A stretch of DNA of 28,453 nt, from UHGV virus genome UHGV-0259231. One strand, written 5' to 3'. The notes beneath the pieces were generated by a model that was given only the letters and a program-made list of their open reading frames with translations, did no database searches and was not told the origin of the DNA. The position numbers were made by a program, and so were the translations under genes. The stretch is from a virus. Positions 981 through 9,042 of the stretch are shown here, in pieces (the stretch's first letter is position 1; each line of letters starts with the position of its first letter).

Positions 981-1268
981 TTAACGGATCAACATCCAGA
1001 TCAGCAGACACGCCACCACCGGCACAGCAAAATCCATCAGGCTTGCCACATCCCACACGCGCGGATCAAAACCGCCCCACCACGGCATGTTAATCCTCTT
1101 GCCATGCCCAAACATTTCAATCCAGCGATATTCTGCCTGGGTGTGTTCACGCGCAATGAAGAACGTACAACCGGCTATCGCCCCGTAAGCCCAGTTCCCG
1201 GTAAAAAGACCAATCAGTAGCTGCGCAGCCACAGCACAAAGCGCATGAAGGAAAGGTGTTATATCCAT
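981..1268 (-). CDS. Small hydrophobic (multi-pass membrane) protein of unknown function, about 95 aa
   Basis: ORF with ATG at 1268 (alternative ATG at 1274; the ORF-track start at 1283 is TTG). An AGGA Shine-Dalgarno lies about 6 nt upstream. The translation has two to three hydrophobic stretches. Confidence 0.5.
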   Translation of the reverse strand: MDITPFLHALCAVAAQLLIGLFTGNWAYGAIAGCTFFIAREHTQAEYRWIEMFGHGKRINMPWWGGFDPRVWDVASLMDFAVPVVACLLIWMLIR

Positions 1269-1280
1269 TTTCATCCTACC

Positions 1281-1304
1281 CAATAAAACGGGGCGCTCGG
1301 CCCC
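1281..1304 (-). terminator. Intrinsic terminator downstream of the distal fibre gene
   Basis: GGGGC/GCCCC stem with a 5-nt loop, followed on the minus strand by GTTTTATT. Confidence 0.45.
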
Positions 1305-1310
1305 TTGATA

Positions 1311-2351
1311 TTATTTAGACGCAAGCGCCGCCTCAATTGCAGATAATCTTTGTCTTAATTCTGCGTTTTCTTCTTCCAGTGCTGTTATTCTGTCGTCTGA
1401 CTCTCTGGCTACCTGAACAAGCAAGCCAGTAACACCAGAATAATCTACTGTGTAATAACGTTCACCTTCTTCACCTTCCGATCCGCTTGCACCGTCCTGA
1501 TATTTCATTGCGGAACCTACAACTTCTGGGATTGCTTCCAGAGCTTCCTGTGCAATGACACCAGCATAGGGCATACCGTTTTCTTTAAGCGTGTATGTAT
1601 AGCCGTTCATTTTACGGATGCGGTCGGTTGCATTATCGATCACCTGAATGTTGTCTTTCAGATCCCGGTCGGAATGCTGGTTAAATGCGGTGGCATGACA
1701 TGCACCATTAACGCTTAACATATAGGTGTTATCGGTATTTTTCTGCGCATAGAACATATAAGCGCCACCATCAGCACCAACTTCATATACAACCGGACGG
1801 GTAGAGTTACCCCACAAACTAGTAGTAGCGCCAGAATGAGCGGTTCCCTGTGTGTTGATTGTCATGGTTGACCCATGATTGGCATATTTGATTTGTAATG
1901 TGTCTGTGCAGTCAAACTTAATAAGCGCGTTACTTCCCCGCACACCATACGACATGAGACAGTTCCCCATCTTAAGGTAACCATCACTGCCTGGAAAAAT
2001 TAATGTTCCACCGTAAAGATCGCTAAAATCCCAAAAGATACCTTTTGTTCCATTGTGTGTGACAATCCTTGTCATTGTATCTTTTGTACCGTCAATATTT
2101 TTTCTAGTGTACATCTCACTATAAGCGTTTTCGGTTTCTCCTGTCTTATTTGACAAGTGAATCTTACCGCTAAATATAGTTCCAGTGGTCGGCAATGTCT
2201 TTTGATCATAGATTACATTGCAATAACTATTCCATGTTGTTTTATTGTCTACATATGATTTTGTTGCGTAGCTTCCTTGATCGTTTTTTAATTTGCTAAC
2301 GTCGGATTTTAGCGTTTTGATGTCTTCAGGAATTACTGTCGATGTAGCCAT
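1311..2351 (-). CDS. Tail fibre / receptor-binding protein with C-terminal intramolecular chaperone (peptidase S74-type) domain
   Basis: The C-terminal 110 aa (SDRDLKDNIQVI ... GVIAQEALEAIPEVV ... YYTVDYSGVTGLLVQVARE ... coiled coil) fit the auto-cleaving chaperone domain of endosialidase/L-shaped tail fibres. The N-terminal 230 aa are Ser/Thr/Gly/Asn-rich and beta-rich, and the DNA is visibly AT-rich. GGAAG Shine-Dalgarno upstream. Confidence 0.6.
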   Translation of the reverse strand: MATSTVIPEDIKTLKSDVSKLKNDQGSYATKSYVDNKTTWNSYCNVIYDQKTLPTTGTIFSGKIHLSNKTGETENAYSEMYTRKNIDGTKDTMTRIVTHNGTKGIFWDFSDLYGGTLIFPGSDGYLKMGNCLMSYGVRGSNALIKFDCTDTLQIKYANHGSTMTINTQGTAHSGATTSLWGNSTRPVVYEVGADGGAYMFYAQKNTDNTYMLSVNGACHATAFNQHSDRDLKDNIQVIDNATDRIRKMNGYTYTLKENGMPYAGVIAQEALEAIPEVVGSAMKYQDGASGSEGEEGERYYTVDYSGVTGLLVQVARESDDRITALEEENAELRQRLSAIEAALASK

Positions 2352-2360
2352 TTTTCTTCC

Positions 2361-2642
2361 TCACATCCAGCCACGAAGTTGATGCTCAACAGCAACCACG
2401 TATTCATCGAATATTGACGATTTTTTTGCATCATTAATGATGCGCACGTTTACAAAATATCCGTCTTCCTTAACACATACCGGCTCGCCATCTTCGGTAA
2501 GTTCTCCGGTTTCTTTGTACACGTTACCTATCACGTCAATAAGAATATCATCCTGCATCGACTCGTCATCATAATAGCCGGCACTCTCCATAAAGGCCGA
2601 AAAGTCGGCCCTGTCGGCAAATTTGAGTGTTAAATCTTTCAT
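2361..2642 (-). CDS. Acidic 93-aa hypothetical protein, translationally coupled to stf (possible fibre assembly factor)
   Basis: Its ATG at 2642 shares one nucleotide with the Stf stop codon (TAATG), and it sits 9 nt upstream of the next fibre gene. No family recognised. Confidence 0.5.
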   Translation of the reverse strand: MKDLTLKFADRADFSAFMESAGYYDDESMQDDILIDVIGNVYKETGELTEDGEPVCVKEDGYFVNVRIINDAKKSSIFDEYVVAVEHQLRGWM

Positions 2643-4831
2643 TAGATTGACTCCCCCACCTGAGCATCAGTCAATGCCTTGTGCCATATTCTGAAATTCC
2701 TGACATGACCAAATAAATGACGCAACCCGGCTGTAGTCTGGCCTCCAATACGGATAATTGCGGTGTTCTGAATATAGGACCATGTGGCTTTCTTTTCGCT
2801 GGATATACGCCCGTTACTTACTGAGCACGTAGACTGATCTGACTTTACACGCATCCCCATAACCATTTTTTCAAGCGATGCGTTTTCGTTTACCCGTCTG
2901 TTAGCCAAACCTATATCGCAATAAGGAAATCCGTCGTAATCTGTTGAACGACCGAAGCCAAGAATAATAGCCGCTCCGGTTTGATGACCGCCGGTATCAA
3001 AAACACGCGGTGCTGCATTTGGCGTTTTATACCAGTTCTTATGTACCTCACAAAGAACTGTAAAAGGAAGATTATAAAGGTTATTCTTGATTGGGACTGT
3101 CACCATATCGCTTGCGCGAGTGCTTGCAATTATATCAGTTACAATAAATGACGAAGCACTTGATCCACCTTCCACTTGTGGAGTTGCGATATCCAGATAG
3201 TCTCCAGATGCTGTGCCTGAACCTTTTACTGGAGCATATTGAACCATCGCACCAATCATGCTCTCTGTATCTAGTGCATTAATTGTAGCCTGATAGAAAA
3301 TCCAACCAGTAGCCTCATCTTTTACAGCCTTTGCAATAATACGATTTGCTGCACCACCAGTCTTATCAATTACAAGTGTTGATAAATTGAGGTAAGCATC
3401 TCCCAAAAAAGTGTAAGTAGAACCATCATGATGTTCAAATCTTAAACGACACCTTATATTTTCAACATCACTTCTGACACGGCATGAAATGGTCACATAT
3501 TTTTCATCACCTGTGACATCAAATCCTTTACTGCCAGAAACCGTTACGATATTAATCGCACTTGTCTGATCAATAAGAGTATCTTTTACAGTAAATCTCC
3601 CATAAGTAAAATTAAAAGAATCCGTGGATATTTCTGTGAGTTCCAGATTGCCTGACTTATTCCATTTAGATGGATTTGTTGAATTAAGCAGAAGATTAGT
3701 TCTTTGCCCCTCAATAAGCAGGCCATCACGTTCAAATCGCGGCTCGTCAATGGCAGCCTCTGTCAGTACACCAGATTTATTAATATAGGTTGCTTTCGAT
3801 GCGCGTTTAAACTTAACAACCTTGTCACCAGGCATCGTTATTTCGTCGTCGCCAATAACAATCTTTTTATATGATGGCGAAAAGCCCGTAATCATATCCA
3901 GTGAATCGTTAAACGGTATCCACACATCGGGAAGCGGCTGCAAAACTTGTTTATACGGCTCCGCAGCCTGGCTTGCATACTCTCTGGCTGCGTCTTCACT
4001 TGCTTTTGCAGCCGTCTGGCTTGCAGCGGATGCTTTCGCCGAGTTAGCCGCCGCAGTCTCGCTCGCCTTTGCGTTGGTTTCACTGGTTTTTGCAGCTTTT
4101 TGACTGTTGGCTGATGCAGTGGCAGAAGAAGCCGCCGCACTTGCAGAACCAGCTGCGGCACTCTCGCTTTGGGCTGCAGCATCCTGACTGTTTTTCGCCG
4201 CAGTTTCACTGGCTTTGGCATTCGTTTCGCTGGTCTTCGCTGCCGTCTGGCTGGACTTTGCGTTGGTTTCGCTCGTCTTTGCGGCTGTCTCGCTGTTTTT
4301 CGCGTTGGTTTCTGATTTTTTGGCTGCTGTCGCGGAGTTTGCCGATGCAGTCTGTGAGGTCGCTGCCGCCTGTGCGCTGTTAGCTGCATTCGTTTCTGAG
4401 GTTTTCGCCGCGTTCTTCGATGATGCCGCTGCAGTTTCGGATTTCTTTGCCGCCGCTGCGCTCTGAGAGGCGGCTTCGGCGTTGCGTGCCGCTTCTTCCA
4501 CCATTGCCTCAAAACGACGCAATGCCTCCGGCATGACATCATCTTCCGTCATGGCACCGAGAAAATCATTCAGCGTACCTGGTCTGGAACCTTCATAGAC
4601 GGTAATGGTCCCGGCATGTGAAGGCGGAAAACCTTCAACCAGCAGGGTGACGCTGTACTGGCCATACTCAACATCCATGCTGTAACGTCCGGCTTCATCC
4701 GGATTTTCAGAAGCCACCGTGTTCACCAGTACCGTGGTGCTGTTACGCTTTGCCTTCAGTTGAATAGTGCAGTTCTGTATTGGTTTTCCCGCACCATCTT
4801 TCAGCACACCTGAGATTTTTACTGCTGCCAT
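2642..4831 (-). CDS. stf: Side tail fibre protein Stf (lambda-like N-terminus, Ala/Ser-rich repeats, distinct C-terminal receptor-binding domain)
   Basis: The N-terminal 110 aa (MAAVKISGVLKDGAGKPIQNCTIQLKAKRNSTT...) are near-identical to lambda Stf as remembered. A central AAKTSETNAK-type repeat region follows. The C-terminal 430 aa are unrelated to lambda and end in a ...RNFRIWHKALTDAQV motif resembling LamG/ConA-like jelly-roll domains. ATG at 4831 has a GGAG Shine-Dalgarno; the ORF-track start at 4837 is GTG. Confidence 0.8.
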   Translation of the reverse strand: MAAVKISGVLKDGAGKPIQNCTIQLKAKRNSTTVLVNTVASENPDEAGRYSMDVEYGQYSVTLLVEGFPPSHAGTITVYEGSRPGTLNDFLGAMTEDDVMPEALRRFEAMVEEAARNAEAASQSAAAAKKSETAAASSKNAAKTSETNAANSAQAAATSQTASANSATAAKKSETNAKNSETAAKTSETNAKSSQTAAKTSETNAKASETAAKNSQDAAAQSESAAAGSASAAASSATASANSQKAAKTSETNAKASETAAANSAKASAASQTAAKASEDAAREYASQAAEPYKQVLQPLPDVWIPFNDSLDMITGFSPSYKKIVIGDDEITMPGDKVVKFKRASKATYINKSGVLTEAAIDEPRFERDGLLIEGQRTNLLLNSTNPSKWNKSGNLELTEISTDSFNFTYGRFTVKDTLIDQTSAINIVTVSGSKGFDVTGDEKYVTISCRVRSDVENIRCRLRFEHHDGSTYTFLGDAYLNLSTLVIDKTGGAANRIIAKAVKDEATGWIFYQATINALDTESMIGAMVQYAPVKGSGTASGDYLDIATPQVEGGSSASSFIVTDIIASTRASDMVTVPIKNNLYNLPFTVLCEVHKNWYKTPNAAPRVFDTGGHQTGAAIILGFGRSTDYDGFPYCDIGLANRRVNENASLEKMVMGMRVKSDQSTCSVSNGRISSEKKATWSYIQNTAIIRIGGQTTAGLRHLFGHVRNFRIWHKALTDAQVGESI
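3982..4480 (-). repeat. Coding tandem repeat array (about 33-nt units encoding AAKTSETNAKxS motifs) inside stf
   Basis: Repeated GCnnnnAAAACCAGCGAAACnAAnGC-like units are visible on the coding strand. They generate the overlapping alternative-frame ORFs at 3822-4542. Confidence 0.7.
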
Positions 4832-4840
4832 ATCCACTCC

Positions 4841-4869
4841 ACAAAAAAGCCCGCCTGAACCGGCGGGCT
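4841..4869 (-). terminator. Intrinsic terminator downstream of lom
   Basis: 8-bp stem AGCCCGCC/GGCGGGCT with a 6-nt loop, followed on the minus strand by TTTTTTGT. It lies just upstream of the stf Shine-Dalgarno. Confidence 0.6.
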
Positions 4870-4895: not shown

Positions 4896-5495
4896 TCAGA
4901 ATTTATAACCGACACCCACGATGAAACCGTCAGTGCGCCAGTCACCACTGCCGGAGCCTTCATAAGCAATATCAATGGCCACGGATTCGGTCGGGTTAAA
5001 CTGCACGCCAGCTCCCCACGCCAGAGACGTGTTGCTGTGGCGACCGTCATCACTTCCGGTCAGCACATCGTGCGTTTTCCCCTTGTTGTCAGTTACGCGG
5101 AGATAATCCCCGGAGAACGTCGAAACACGGCTGTAAGCCACACCTGCCATCGCATAAGCACTGAACCATTCATTCACGCGTACAGATGGCCCCGCCATCA
5201 TGCTGAACCAGCGGTTACGCACTGAATCTTCATGCCAGCGGGTATCGCTGTAATGCGTTTTTTGCTCATCTTTGGCATTGGCATAACTGAATGACGTCAC
5301 CAGCCCCAGCGTGTCCGTAAATTCATAACGGTATTTCACGTTAATGCCCTTCAGGTCATCACTGCCTGGCATATCAGTATGGGTCTGAAGATACCCGGCG
5401 CTTAGTGTGGACTGATGCTCTGCTGCGCTCGCTGGCGTACCAGCGGCAACCAGCCAGACTACTGCGGACAGAATAACAGCACATAATTTACGCAT
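4896..5495 (-). CDS. lom: Lom outer-membrane protein (Ail/Lom family) with signal peptide
   Basis: Translation is near-identical to lambda Lom as remembered (…STLSAGY…GINVKYRYEFTDTLGLVTSFSY … ends GFIVGVGYKF). N-terminal signal peptide present. Confidence 0.9.
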   Translation of the reverse strand: MRKLCAVILSAVVWLVAAGTPASAAEHQSTLSAGYLQTHTDMPGSDDLKGINVKYRYEFTDTLGLVTSFSYANAKDEQKTHYSDTRWHEDSVRNRWFSMMAGPSVRVNEWFSAYAMAGVAYSRVSTFSGDYLRVTDNKGKTHDVLTGSDDGRHSNTSLAWGAGVQFNPTESVAIDIAYEGSGSGDWRTDGFIVGVGYKF

Positions 5496-5516: not shown

Positions 5517-5543
5517 AATAAAAAAGGCGTCATTTCTGACGCC
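5517..5543 (-). terminator. Intrinsic terminator downstream of J
   Basis: GGCGTCA/TGACGCC stem with a 4-nt loop, followed on the minus strand by TTTTTTATT. Confidence 0.55.
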
Positions 5544-5562
5544 CGTATTGGGGTTATAAAAT

Positions 5563-8500
5563 TCAGCTGATACTGATGCCTGCGGTGGCTTTCTTCATCA
5601 CCACAACCAGCAAATCGCTGATACTTGCTGTGGGATACCAGTCATTTACCAGCCATGCTGACACCGAAAACTCCAGCGTCATGTGACCGTGACCGGCAGG
5701 CATATCAATAACGCCACTGTAAATCAGCGTATTATCCAGCGCGGTACGGTTATAAATTTCAGCACCGTTTTTCCGCACTATCAGACGGCATGAGGAGTAA
5801 ATATCAGTATGCTCTCTCTCATGCTTAGCGCCGCTGAATGCCACCGCCGGAATAACAATCTGCCGGTCAAACGGCTGATCGTCATAAATCCTGACGGTAA
5901 TGGTCCCTGATGGCCAGCGTTCCGGTGCACGGGAGTCCCGGGGGAAAGCTTTGCCCACTGTTTTAACGAGATCGCCTTCAATCTGGTTCGCGGACAGTTT
6001 TCCCAGAACCCGGCAGTTCTCGTTAATCGTGACGTTGTTGAGCGTCCCGGAGTTCGCATTCACGTTACCGCTGATATCGGCATTTTTCGCCGTCAGCCGC
6101 CCGTCCGGTGTCAGGGAAAATGCCGGAGGATTACCGCCGCTGGTAATGGTGGGAGCCGTCAGATATTTCAGGAACACTTCGTTCATGAATATCTGATCGC
6201 CCTGACCAACAAACATCGGCTTTGTGTTGCCATTCGCAGGATTAACCATCGCAATCCTGTCCGCCGCCAGCAGCACCTGACTCTGCATGCCGTCAGGGGT
6301 ATTCTCAATACCGGCACCAATACCCGCGATATAAAGGCGTCCGTCCTGCATCTGCTGCAGCTTCACAGCCCACATGCTGTTCAGGTTATTATTTGTATCA
6401 ACCTGAACCTTCTGTATCTGCTGAATTGCCGCACTCTGGTCTTCCAGTTTCTTATTGACGGTCTGCGTGACTTCATTGCTGACATCCGTAATGGACGTCC
6501 TGATTTCAGCCAGGTCAGGCGCAAGCTGACCGTTATCAATCTGCGTCCACAGCTCCTGAGCCAGATGGGTTTTCCCTATCTCGCCTTTGAAAAAATCCAG
6601 ATAGCCGGATGCATCATCACTCGGCTGGCTAACAGCCTCCACGAATGCCGATTTGCCAACGGTGTTCACACTGCGGATATAAAAGTAATAATCATGGCCC
6701 GGTTTGATATTGATACTGGCGGCTATCCAGTACAGCCCCGTGCCAAGGTAGCGGGCTGTGGTTTCAACCTGCCTGATATCGGTAATCCGCGTTTCCGAGA
6801 ACCAGAACTCAAATTGTACCGTCGGATCATAAACCGCAAGATGCGGCGTGGCGGTTATCTGAAAATAGCCCGGTGTCAGCTCAATCCGAGACGGCGCTGC
6901 CGGTGCGGCAATCCGGAACGATACCGATGCCGGCTCGCCCTGCTGTCCCCACGCATTTACAGCCCGGACAGTCAGCCTGTAGTTCCCCAGCGCCAGTTGC
7001 GTGAAGCGGTATGTGGTTTCCGTCGTCCGGGCCGTGCTGACCAGCCGCTCACTGCCGTCATCCGCTGTTACGGTCAGACGGAGCAGGAAGCTCACGCCCT
7101 TCACCACCTTCGGCGTGTCCCAGCGCGCCAGCACCTGATATTCCCCGCTGTCTGCGGTGACTTCGGCGGTCAGGTGCTGCACCGCTGGCGGCGTGACACC
7201 ATTCACCGTGCCGCTCTGGTCGCCGTCAAAGTGCGCCCCGTTATCCACGATGGCCTCTTTTTCCGGTACATGCTGCACGGCAGTGATGGCATACGTGCCG
7301 TCATCGTTCTCACGGATACTCACACAGCGGAACAGGCGCTGGCGCAACGTCGGCAACTTCAGCCCCCACACGCTGTATTCAGCAACGCCGTCAGGAACCC
7401 GGCTCACTTTCACCTTCACGCCGTCGGTGACGGACTGAACCTCCACGCTGACCGGATTGCCATTTCCGTCAACCAGGCTTATCAGCGTGGTGCCGGAGGA
7501 TGGCAGCGTGATTTCACGGTCGAGCGTCAGCGTCCGGGTCTGGCTGTTCACCGCCAGCACGCGACCACCGGTGCTGATACCGGCATAGTCATCATCGCAG
7601 ATTTCAATGACATCGCCCGGCACATGGCGAAGCCCTTCAGCACCCACGCTGAAGTCCACGGTCTGCGTTTCCAGCAGCTCCGTTTTAATCAGCCACAGCC
7701 CGGCTCGGTGTGCCTGCCCCCGGCTGGTACAGCCAAAGGCATCCATTTTCGTGACGTTACGACCGTAACGGGCAATGGCCTGCGTATCCTCCACAAGCTC
7801 TGTCGCCGTCTCCCAGCCGTTATTCGGGTCAATCCAGTTCACCTCAACGGCATTATGGCGGTCCTTCAGGGCGCTGAAGCTGTAGCGGAACGGCGCACCA
7901 TCATCCGGCATCACCACATTACTGCGGTTATAGGTCCACACCTTATCTGATGGCCGGTCCTGCACGAACGTCAGCGTCTGCCCGTTCCATACCGGCATAC
8001 AGCGCATCGCCGAGCAGAAATCACTGAGCACATCCCACGCCTTGCGCTGTGTGGTCAGGTACGCATTACAGGTGATGCGCGGCTCCGTGCCGCCAAAGCC
8101 GTCCGGCACTGACTGGTCGCAGTACTGGCCGATGACATACAGCGCCCATTTATCCACATCCGCCGCACCAAGACGTTTCCCCATGCCGTAGCGCGGATGG
8201 GTCAGCATATCCCACAGACACCAGGCCATGTTGTTGCTGTATGCCGGTTTAAACGTTCCGTCCCAGATACCGCTGTATTGCCGCGTCTGCGGGTTATAAT
8301 TCGACGGCACCTGCAGAATACGCCCGCGCAGATGATAATTACGGCTCACCTGCTGGCTGCCGAACTGCTCCGAGTCCACCTGCACGCCGACCAGTGCCGT
8401 GTTCGGGTAGCACTGTTTCACATCGATGATTTCGGTGTATGACGACCAGAGCGTTTTGTTCTGCAGCTGGTCTGTGGTGCTGTCCGGCGTCATCCTGCGC

Positions 8501-9042
8501 ATCCGTATATTGAACGGGCGCGGCGGCAGGTTACCCACCACCACCGAGGCCAGATACTGCGAGGTGGTTTTGCCCTTAATGGTGATGTCTTTTTCCGTCA
8601 CCCAGCCACCATTACGCTGTATCTGAACCAGCAGGCGGACTTCCGACGGATTCCTGTCCCCCTTTGAGGTGGTTTCCACCAGTGCCTGCACGCCGAAGGT
8701 AAAACGCAGTCGGTCAATGTTTGCCGACGTGATGGTCCGGGTGATCGGCGTGTCGTATTTCACTTCCGTACCCAGCACCGTCTCGGAGCCGGAGGATTCA
8801 AATCCCTCCGGCGGTGTCTGCTCCTGCTCACCGGCCCGGAACACCACCGTGACGCCGGAGATGTTGGTATTCCCCTCACTGTCCAGCACTGGCGTACTGT
8901 TCAGCAGCACGCTTTTTAATCCATCCACCGGACCTTCAATCGGCCCTTCGCTGATGGCATCAATCACACTCAGCAGTTGCGTGGATTTCAGGTTGTCCTT
9001 CGCTTCGCGCGGGGTATGCCCCTTACTGCTGCCTTTACCCAT
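5563..9042 (-). CDS. J: Tail tip / host specificity protein J (central tail fibre)
   Basis: 1159 aa. The N-terminus [45 protein letters not shown] and most of the length match lambda gpJ as remembered; the C-terminal receptor-binding region diverges. Confidence 0.93.

Follow-up and report, generated by a model that had tools for sequence, protein, structure and literature searches.

The closest described parallels to the locus considered here come from the phages AKFV33 and IrisVonRoten. In AKFV33, ORF137 and ORF135 were named ltpA and ltpB, ORF137 was detected in virions, and the distal fibre was proposed to hang on the proximal one (PMC3326045); in IrisVonRoten the distal, T-shaped fibre Gp24 was predicted to attach to the proximal fibre Gp22 (PMC11990801). 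In both phages this attachment rests on predictions and genetics (PMC11990801, PMC3326045). We analyzed a 28,453-nucleotide stretch of viral DNA (UHGV virus genome UHGV-0259231; hereafter the window), which is the late-gene end of a lambda-like E. coli prophage adjoining yodB, with host DNA past its final gene, p100. We find that the region at and downstream of the 3' end of its side tail fibre gene, stf, probably codes for the outer parts of a two-segment side tail fibre. Like AKFV33 and IrisVonRoten, the window combines a proximal fibre ending in a region that we term StfC (34% and 65% identical in the two phages, respectively), a small protein encoded directly behind it (p93 in the window, 88-92 residues in the two phages), and a distal fibre that starts with a T-x-IP-x-DIT-x-LK motif and ends in a Peptidase_S74 (S74) domain.

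The open reading frames that the first-pass annotation of this DNA placed at 1311-2351 and 2361-2642 on the minus strand were confirmed, and RefSeq annotates the same genes on identical E. coli DNA, where the products from stf onward are labelled 'prophage tail fiber N-terminal domain-containing protein', 'hypothetical protein', 'tail fiber domain-containing protein' and 'hypothetical protein'. The genes and domains on which our argument turns are the following:

2642-4837, minus strand: stf, coding for 731 amino acids
4436-4825, minus strand: Stf residues 5-134, collar or anchor domain fixing the side fibre to the tail (PF08400 phage_tail_N, E-value 8.9e-67)
3938-4435, minus strand: Stf residues 135-300, Ala/Ser/Thr/Glu/Lys-rich repeat shaft with SETNAK-type repeats of 7 and 14 residues, conserved among prophages and variable in length
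2645-3937, minus strand: StfC, Stf residues 301-731, lectin-like beta-sandwich end of the proximal fibre (homology, NCBIfam, conservation profile)
2361-2642, minus strand: p93, acidic open reading frame of 93 amino acids (PHROG 1361)
1311-2351, minus strand: distal fibre gene, open reading frame of 346 amino acids with Peptidase_S74 at the C-terminus
2301-2351, minus strand: distal fibre residues 1-17 (MATSTVIPEDIKTLKSD), N-terminal motif and proposed docking peptide (motif and linker conservation)
1917-2231, minus strand: distal fibre residues 41-145, hypervariable beta-rich region (alleles, lowest GC)
1674-1916, minus strand: distal fibre residues 146-226, conserved fibre-tip module right before the cleavage site (homology)
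1314-1673, minus strand: distal fibre residues 227-346, Peptidase_S74 chaperone ending in a long helix (Pfam, sequence profile, AlphaFold2)

The C-terminus of the 346-residue protein had been read as carrying the signature of a self-cleaving intramolecular chaperone, and such a domain is indeed present by sequence: Peptidase_S74 (PF13884) matches residues 227-278 with an E-value of 6.2e-14 and 52.5 bits against a cut-off of 22. The catalytic pair has the Ser-x4-Lys form S227-D-R-D-L-K232, with Ser227 encoded at 1671-1673 and Lys232 at 1656-1658, and each of the two residues is at least 90% conserved in 13 homologues; a lack of this pair, named on first pass as grounds for rejecting the reading, is therefore not seen. 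A profile built from this and related domains matches the solved chaperones 8hqz_d (E-value 3.4e-19), 6f45 (S16 gp37), 7dc3 (MYRF) and 3gud (GA-1 gp12), and the catalytic pair aligns with SDERHK at the start of 3gud and with SDRRIK of 6f45. These features predict that the protein cleaves itself at Ser227. As a separate observation, in the distal fibre of phage EC100 (locus L005, 7678-8019) a domain with a strong Pfam S74 match has a Cys in place of the nucleophilic Ser (CDERLK), and may be a Cys-nucleophile or a non-cleaving variant.

The opposite end of the distal fibre carries a motif that points to how it might be attached. In the window its N-terminus reads MATSTVIPEDIKTLK, matching T-x-IP-x-DI-x-x-LK, a motif that eight further phage loci share. 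Its core, IP-x-DI-x-x-LK, is found a single time in each of the loci of JenP2, VogelGryff, EC100, IrisVonRoten and tinuso, invariably where the gene behind p93 begins, and was also found in AKFV33 and KarlBarth upon reading their translated N-termini; the loci of phage 21 and nimi do not have it. All of its occurrences among the loci compared lie at the beginning of a gene located downstream of StfC and p93. In the distal fibre of the window the motif is followed by a short helical stretch, and the bodies of the products that bear it are otherwise unrelated, with S74 at the end in all but KarlBarth gp30/gp31. That this motif is common to the distal fibres of T5-like, T1-like, Dhillonvirus and Queuovirinae phages argues for docking on Stf, and we regard the 346-residue protein as most likely a distal fibre whose N-terminal peptide would dock on Stf at its StfC/p93 end. 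The recognition of this shared N-terminal motif of plug-in distal fibres is new here. The first-pass annotation stated that the protein has no obvious tail-attachment domain, and for direct attachment to the tail this stands, as neither a collar nor any other tail anchor was matched in it by Pfam or PHROG; it does not extend to attachment as such, given that the conserved motif points to docking on Stf.

Between its two termini the distal fibre consists of a variable and a conserved part. Residues 41-145 fall into two allele classes, about 51% identical, among the 346-residue homologues, and the variable allele of the window (1917-2300) is found in 250 of 5426 complete E. coli genomes; this region likely determines specificity. 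Residues 146-226 share 45-53% identity with C-terminal portions of fibres from T5-like and rV5-like phages, and weakly resemble the repeat domain of T4 gp34 (4uxe/5nxf). Two further observations concern the homologues. Those designated P0191, P0194, P0197, P0198 and P0201 have a variable count of NITTLQNDVKTAKSDI-like repeats after the N-terminal motif, which implies that the length of the distal fibre stalk differs between alleles. In KarlBarth (locus L089, 5044-5923) the distal fibre is annotated as two open reading frames, gp30 and gp31, that lack S74 and jointly resemble the C-terminal binding region of phiEco32 gp14; this may reflect a frameshift, or another type of tip on the same docking motif.

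The proposed carrier of the distal fibre is identified as the virion-bound piece by its N-terminus, in which residues 5-97 match the collar domain of Ur-lambda Stf (9e7m_Ta; E-value 7e-49), which has been solved on the tail, where it contacts gpV and gpM (PMC12617516). The shaft that follows contains tandem repeats of 21 and 42 nucleotides at 4122-4312 and shows 90% identity or more in about 64 of the 80 prophage loci described below, and its length looks polymorphic, as the otherwise matching Stf of NZ_CP048107 has 792 residues against 731 here. No Pfam family matched within StfC, and the NCBIfam GTA_spike_fiber domain was detected at Stf residues 374-575. Its conservation profile shows a conserved frame at residues 296-385, 551-610 and 701-731, and variable stretches at 386-550 and 611-700, as expected of a lectin-like sandwich with variable binding loops. 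StfC is 43-71% identical in phage 21, T1-like, Seuratvirus, Nonagvirus, T5-like and rV5-like phages, and 34-71% identical to the proximal-fibre C-termini of AKFV33, IrisVonRoten, EC100, JenP2, VogelGryff and tinuso; it was recovered in 218 GenBank phage records from the same phage groups as p93 (below). IrisVonRoten Gp22, 65% identical to StfC, has been described as a proximal fibre with a C-terminal galectin-like domain that may be an additional receptor-binding domain (Humolli et al. 2025, PMC11990801). Accordingly, StfC is likely to be both the first receptor-binding part of the side fibre and the docking platform for the second.

The small protein encoded between the two fibres, p93, had been called acidic and translationally coupled to stf, and both descriptions hold: its isoelectric point is 4.19, with 21 Asp/Glu against 9 Lys/Arg, and its ATG overlaps the stop codon of stf in the sequence TAATG. 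With a ratio of nonsynonymous to synonymous substitution rates (dN/dS) of 0.33 among 41 alleles, it is a real gene under purifying selection. AlphaFold2 models it with a predicted local distance difference test score (pLDDT) of 85 as a beta-alpha-alpha-beta-beta fold with a conserved, less confidently modelled C-terminal tail, P-x-R-x-W-A. A structure-based fold search with this model gave no informative match and no likeness to solved fibre chaperones, and sequence searches against PDB, Pfam (PF02413, Tfa/Caudo_TAP, included), NCBIfam and PADLOC gave no match, leaving PHROG 1361, of 'unknown function', as the sole family match. Using tblastn we recovered homologues in 181 GenBank phage records, with hosts of the gene among lambdoid, T1-like Drexlerviridae, Dhillonvirus, Queuovirinae, T5-like Markadamsvirinae and rV5-like Vequintavirus phages. 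An exhaustive HMMER scan of 1.84 billion representatives returned only 52 clusters, from which the family appears small and narrow. A separate scan for related loci, run with a single sequence, gave close E. coli prophage relatives only, and the wider diversity discussed here was drawn from the GenBank phage records and five metagenomic loci.

In every phage locus compared (phage 21, VogelGryff, JenP2, EC100, nimi, tinuso, IrisVonRoten, KarlBarth, AKFV33, mEp460 and Lambda_ev110) a homologue of p93 comes directly after StfC, its start codon overlapping or abutting the stop codon of the fibre gene, and the same order was found in 80 of 80 prophage loci. Even in the five metagenomic loci, which hold five of the most divergent p93 homologues at 29-33% identity, p93 still follows a StfC-type fibre end: the upstream proteins have kept some 90 residues from the start of StfC as well as its terminal motif HLFGH-x-RN-x-RIWH-x-AL-x-D-x-Q, their middle can be unrelated to StfC, and two of them show weak Laminin_G_3 matches. 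This strict linkage of StfC and p93 across phage groups is new here. The module as a whole is missing from rV5 itself, and p93 is present without a second fibre in phage 21, mEp460, Lambda_ev110, the rV5-like nimi and the metagenomic loci L094 and L098/L099. Because loci that lack the second fibre keep p93, it is the partner of the StfC end and not of the S74 fibre, with which the first-pass annotation had paired it.

The absence of a Tfa-like assembly gene, likewise noted on first pass, was borne out by Pfam and annotation, with none found between lom, the gene preceding stf, and the end of the prophage. The place of such a gene, directly 3' of the fibre gene, is taken by p93, which supports the notion that it works like Tfa, not that it belongs to the Tfa family. 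Its tie to StfC, its Tfa-like position, its translational coupling and its persistence without a distal fibre together suggest that p93 is most likely a dedicated assembly factor of StfC in the place of Tfa. The main argument, an indirect one, comes from phiR2-01, where a true Caudo_TAP chaperone (E-value 2.6e-19) is encoded between the genes for the proximal and the distal fibre, making the same slot here a natural one for the assembly factor of the proximal fibre. The small phiR2-01 gene was also considered as a homologue of p93 and rejected, being Caudo_TAP instead.

To define how these parts vary, we compared the window with 80 IMG/VR loci in which p93 is at least 92% identical, and obtained the following mosaic:

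4050-4850: 5' half of stf, conserved, with 90% identity or more in about 64 of 80 loci
2720-4050: StfC block, variable, amino-acid identity 39-100%
2300-2720: linker, in which p93 is flanked by ~26 codons from the end of Stf and ~17 from the start of the distal fibre, alignable in 72-80 of 80 loci
1300-2300: distal fibre body, variable, alignable in about 39 of 80 loci
1000-1250: p100 block, alignable in about 67 of 80 loci, the right flank of the distal-fibre cassette

The third gene of the module is a mini-fibre of 229-234 residues, with S74 from residue 116, in 36 loci (including L008), a 346-residue protein with another binding allele in 27, and window-like in five. We note in passing that the mini-fibre, once mature, would measure only about 115 residues, made up of the docking motif, a coiled coil and a tiny tip. 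Each of the two common distal fibre types was found with all StfC allele classes, and the five window-like loci span two of these classes. This indicates that the two receptor-binding parts are swapped independently, with the p93 linker as their shared recombination anchor. The cassette exchange that had been anticipated at this locus is thus seen as variable blocks among the 80 loci, with the amendment that what was taken for a single cassette downstream of stf is two independently exchanged ones, StfC and the distal body, split by a conserved linker. The exact boundaries of this mosaic are new here.

The near-invariance of p93 in this mosaic leads to an alternative that we consider unlikely, yet the most serious of those weighed: that p93 is a structural junction piece kept in the virion, comparable to T4 gp35 between the half-fibres, which sits on the conserved C-terminal tail of Stf and forms the socket into which the distal fibre inserts its N-terminal peptide. 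The conserved linker covers exactly the end of Stf, p93 and the start of the distal fibre, both neighbours vary while p93 hardly does, and the conserved, low-confidence P-x-R-x-W-A tail is as expected of a docking peptide; moreover, the rV5-like homologue, in a locus without a distal fibre, has lost this tail motif. However, p93 is intact and retains the tail motif in the functional phages 21, mEp460 and Lambda_ev110, which have no distal fibre, and is likewise kept without one in the distant loci L094 and L098/L099, and a conserved linker would equally be expected of a recombination anchor under no diversifying selection. The assembly and junction roles are not exclusive, and both can hold.

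Several observations weigh against our preferred interpretation, in which p93 assembles StfC and the 346-residue protein docks on it. A p93 that is at least 92% identical beside StfC alleles only 39-46% identical would be unusual for a chaperone that reads a variable tip, and fits better with binding to the conserved frame or tail of StfC, or with a structural junction; the prophage sample in which p93 is invariant was itself picked by similarity to p93. The proteomics of AKFV33 (PMC3326045) does not mention ORF136, the p93 homologue. Furthermore, the AlphaFold2 monomer of the distal fibre, built on an alignment of 13 sequences, has a mean pLDDT of 35.9, with the helix at residues 305-345 as the sole part reaching 67-81.

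Base composition bears on a further alternative, close to that of the first-pass annotation, in which the 346-residue protein is an independent receptor-binding protein with p93 as its partner, acquired as one cassette and joined to the tail by another route. The DNA coding for the N-terminal part of the distal fibre had been described as conspicuously AT-rich, and this is the case: GC is 0.398 in codons 1-226 against 0.519 in the prophage, the 2.9th percentile of equal-sized windows, with residues 41-145 (1917-2231) as the most AT-rich part at 0.375. Its confinement to that part did not hold up. The S74-coding part of the gene (0.455), the p93 gene (0.429) and the final 431 codons of stf (0.414, with third-position GC of 0.33) are low too, and with 0.53-0.56 in the 5' part of stf (0.56 for shaft codons 135-300) the low-GC tract runs from 1311 to ~3937, placing the compositional break inside stf near 3937. 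Although the two genes are adjacent and AT-rich, and the 346-residue protein has its own chaperone domain, we regard an independent cassette as very unlikely. Both the AT-rich block and the mosaic boundary begin inside stf, p93 accompanies StfC where the second fibre is missing, the 346-residue protein has no collar or anchor domain, and its N-terminal motif was seen only downstream of StfC and p93, in siphoviruses with unrelated tails from four groups, the T5-like phages among them. Recent acquisition is likewise not supported, the arrangement being widespread, with DNA matching 900-2900 of the window in 1920 of 5426 complete E. coli genomes. It is hardly credible that the module is a decaying or non-structural remnant that enters no particle, for although it lies beside the attachment site, a place where cargo genes and debris accumulate, and some loci hold truncated copies, none of the reading frames is disrupted, purifying selection acts on p93, the catalytic residues of the S74 domain are conserved, and the same three-gene module occurs in lytic, plaque-forming phages.

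Returning to the two-segment fibre, we propose that Stf, presumably a trimer, would be fixed to the tail by its collar domain and bear StfC in place of the lambda-type tip with Tfa. Translated by coupling from the stop codon of stf, p93 would act on or with StfC as a folding or assembly factor. The S74 domain would drive trimerisation of the distal fibre and then cut itself off at Ser227, and the conserved N-terminal peptide of the distal fibre would dock on the StfC/p93 end of Stf. Each side fibre would then possess two receptor-binding parts, one formed by the variable stretches within StfC and the other by the variable body of the distal fibre, with surface glycans as their probable targets. 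This makes the dual specificity suggested on first pass plausible, and the two parts would be swapped independently via recombination in the 5' half of stf, the p93 linker and p100. It is conceivable, if somewhat short of probable, that p93 founds a new family of assembly or junction proteins, small and acidic, that are obligatorily paired with StfC ends, replace Tfa, and perhaps serve as the socket for interchangeable distal fibres through the 17-residue peptide. If true, this family would span lambdoid, T1-like, Dhillonvirus, Queuovirinae, T5-like and rV5-like phages and constitute a portable plug-and-socket system for stacking receptor-binding modules. For annotation, the locus should be treated as one composite side fibre, rather than as stf plus an orphan second fibre. 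For engineering the host range of lambda-based particles and of T5- or T1-like phages, the junctions mapped in this study, near residue 300 of Stf, in the p93 linker and at the 17 N-terminal residues of the distal fibre, offer practical places to splice. The transfer of a StfC-type tip would probably need p93 as well.

The surroundings of the module in the window comprise the following features:

5563-9042, minus strand: J
4896-5495, minus strand: lom
1290-1304, minus strand: weak terminator-like hairpin GGGGC-N5-GCCCC followed by GTTTTATT, 3' of the distal fibre gene (consensus match only)
981-1283, minus strand: p100, small membrane protein of 100 amino acids and final prophage gene (phrog_1443, function unknown)

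The p100 protein is 89% identical to a 'putative membrane protein' with two transmembrane segments that directly follows p93 in phage 21, and its role is possibly exclusion or envelope-related. A strong terminator-like hairpin with an 8-bp stem, 7 G-C pairs and a T-run lies between lom and the start of stf (4848-4869, minus strand), and a similar one after J (5525-5544); late antiterminated transcription presumably passes both. At ~573-624 we noticed a fragment like the 3' half of a tRNA, where the translated open reading frame resembles tRNA-Ser and Rfam gave sub-threshold matches to the tRNA-antisense family and the 3' end of tmRNA; ARAGORN called no complete tRNA at the prophage border. A 241-bp stretch at this fragment is unannotated and present in two copies per genome; for that reason it probably represents the attachment-site repeat, the prophage having integrated at a tRNA gene. 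Elsewhere, at 25778-26087 on the minus strand, the prophage carries four clustered tRNA genes (Gly-TCC, Thr-TGT, Lys-TTT, Met-CAT). Among the GenBank records, some named as Campylobacter or Listeria phages (e.g. MG065654, OR847733) are up to 100% identical to rV5-like and T5-like phages of E. coli and are probably mislabelled or contaminant assemblies.

Set against known systems, the locus differs from AKFV33 and IrisVonRoten in its anchor, which is the lambda Stf collar domain in the window and the N-terminus of T5 Ltf in those phages, in the length of the distal fibre (346 against 557-576 residues), and, by sequence, in lacking the Gp12-like first binding domain of T-shaped fibres. A term search of the AKFV33 and IrisVonRoten papers (PMC3326045, PMC11990801) found no discussion of a small p93-type protein, and IrisVonRoten Gp23, the p93 homologue, is annotated simply as 'tail fiber protein'. 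DT57C and DT571-2 (LtfA/LtfB), phiR2-01 (g125/g124/g123) and phiEco32 (gp14/gp15) likewise attach an S74-bearing second fibre via a virion-bound first fibre, and phiR2-01 has a small accessory gene between the two fibre genes, as p93 is in the window. However, DT57C LtfB, phiEco32 gp15 and phiR2-01 g123 start with M-x-R-x-LMP-x-SG instead of T-x-IP-x-DI-x-x-LK, and their partner fibres lack StfC. We also considered whether the distal fibre uses the DT57C/phiEco32 docking motif, and rejected this, as the window proteins show no similarity to phiEco32 gp14 or gp15 and the N-terminus is unlike that of phiR2-01 g123. Nor did the Stf of the window match the 1076-residue L-shaped tail fibre chain 8hqz_d, the C-terminus of which is matched by the S74 profile.

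The Stf of lambda shares with that of the window a homologous collar domain and coiled-coil shaft, and in both an accessory gene stands directly after stf; lambda has a gp37-like tip with Tfa, whereas the window has a lectin-like sandwich, no Tfa/Caudo_TAP gene and an extra distal fibre gene. As in endosialidase K1F, T5 pb1, GA-1 gp12 and S16 gp37, the S74 domain of the window begins with Ser-x4-Lys right after the fibre tip and continues into helices; unlike in these proteins, it is borne by a short add-on fibre without a virion anchor of its own. Our findings leave the current understanding of phage fibres unchanged: the locus represents, in a lambdoid prophage, the two-segment lateral fibre that had been recognised before in T5-like phages, a design that is common in E. 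coli and, in principle, ordinary.

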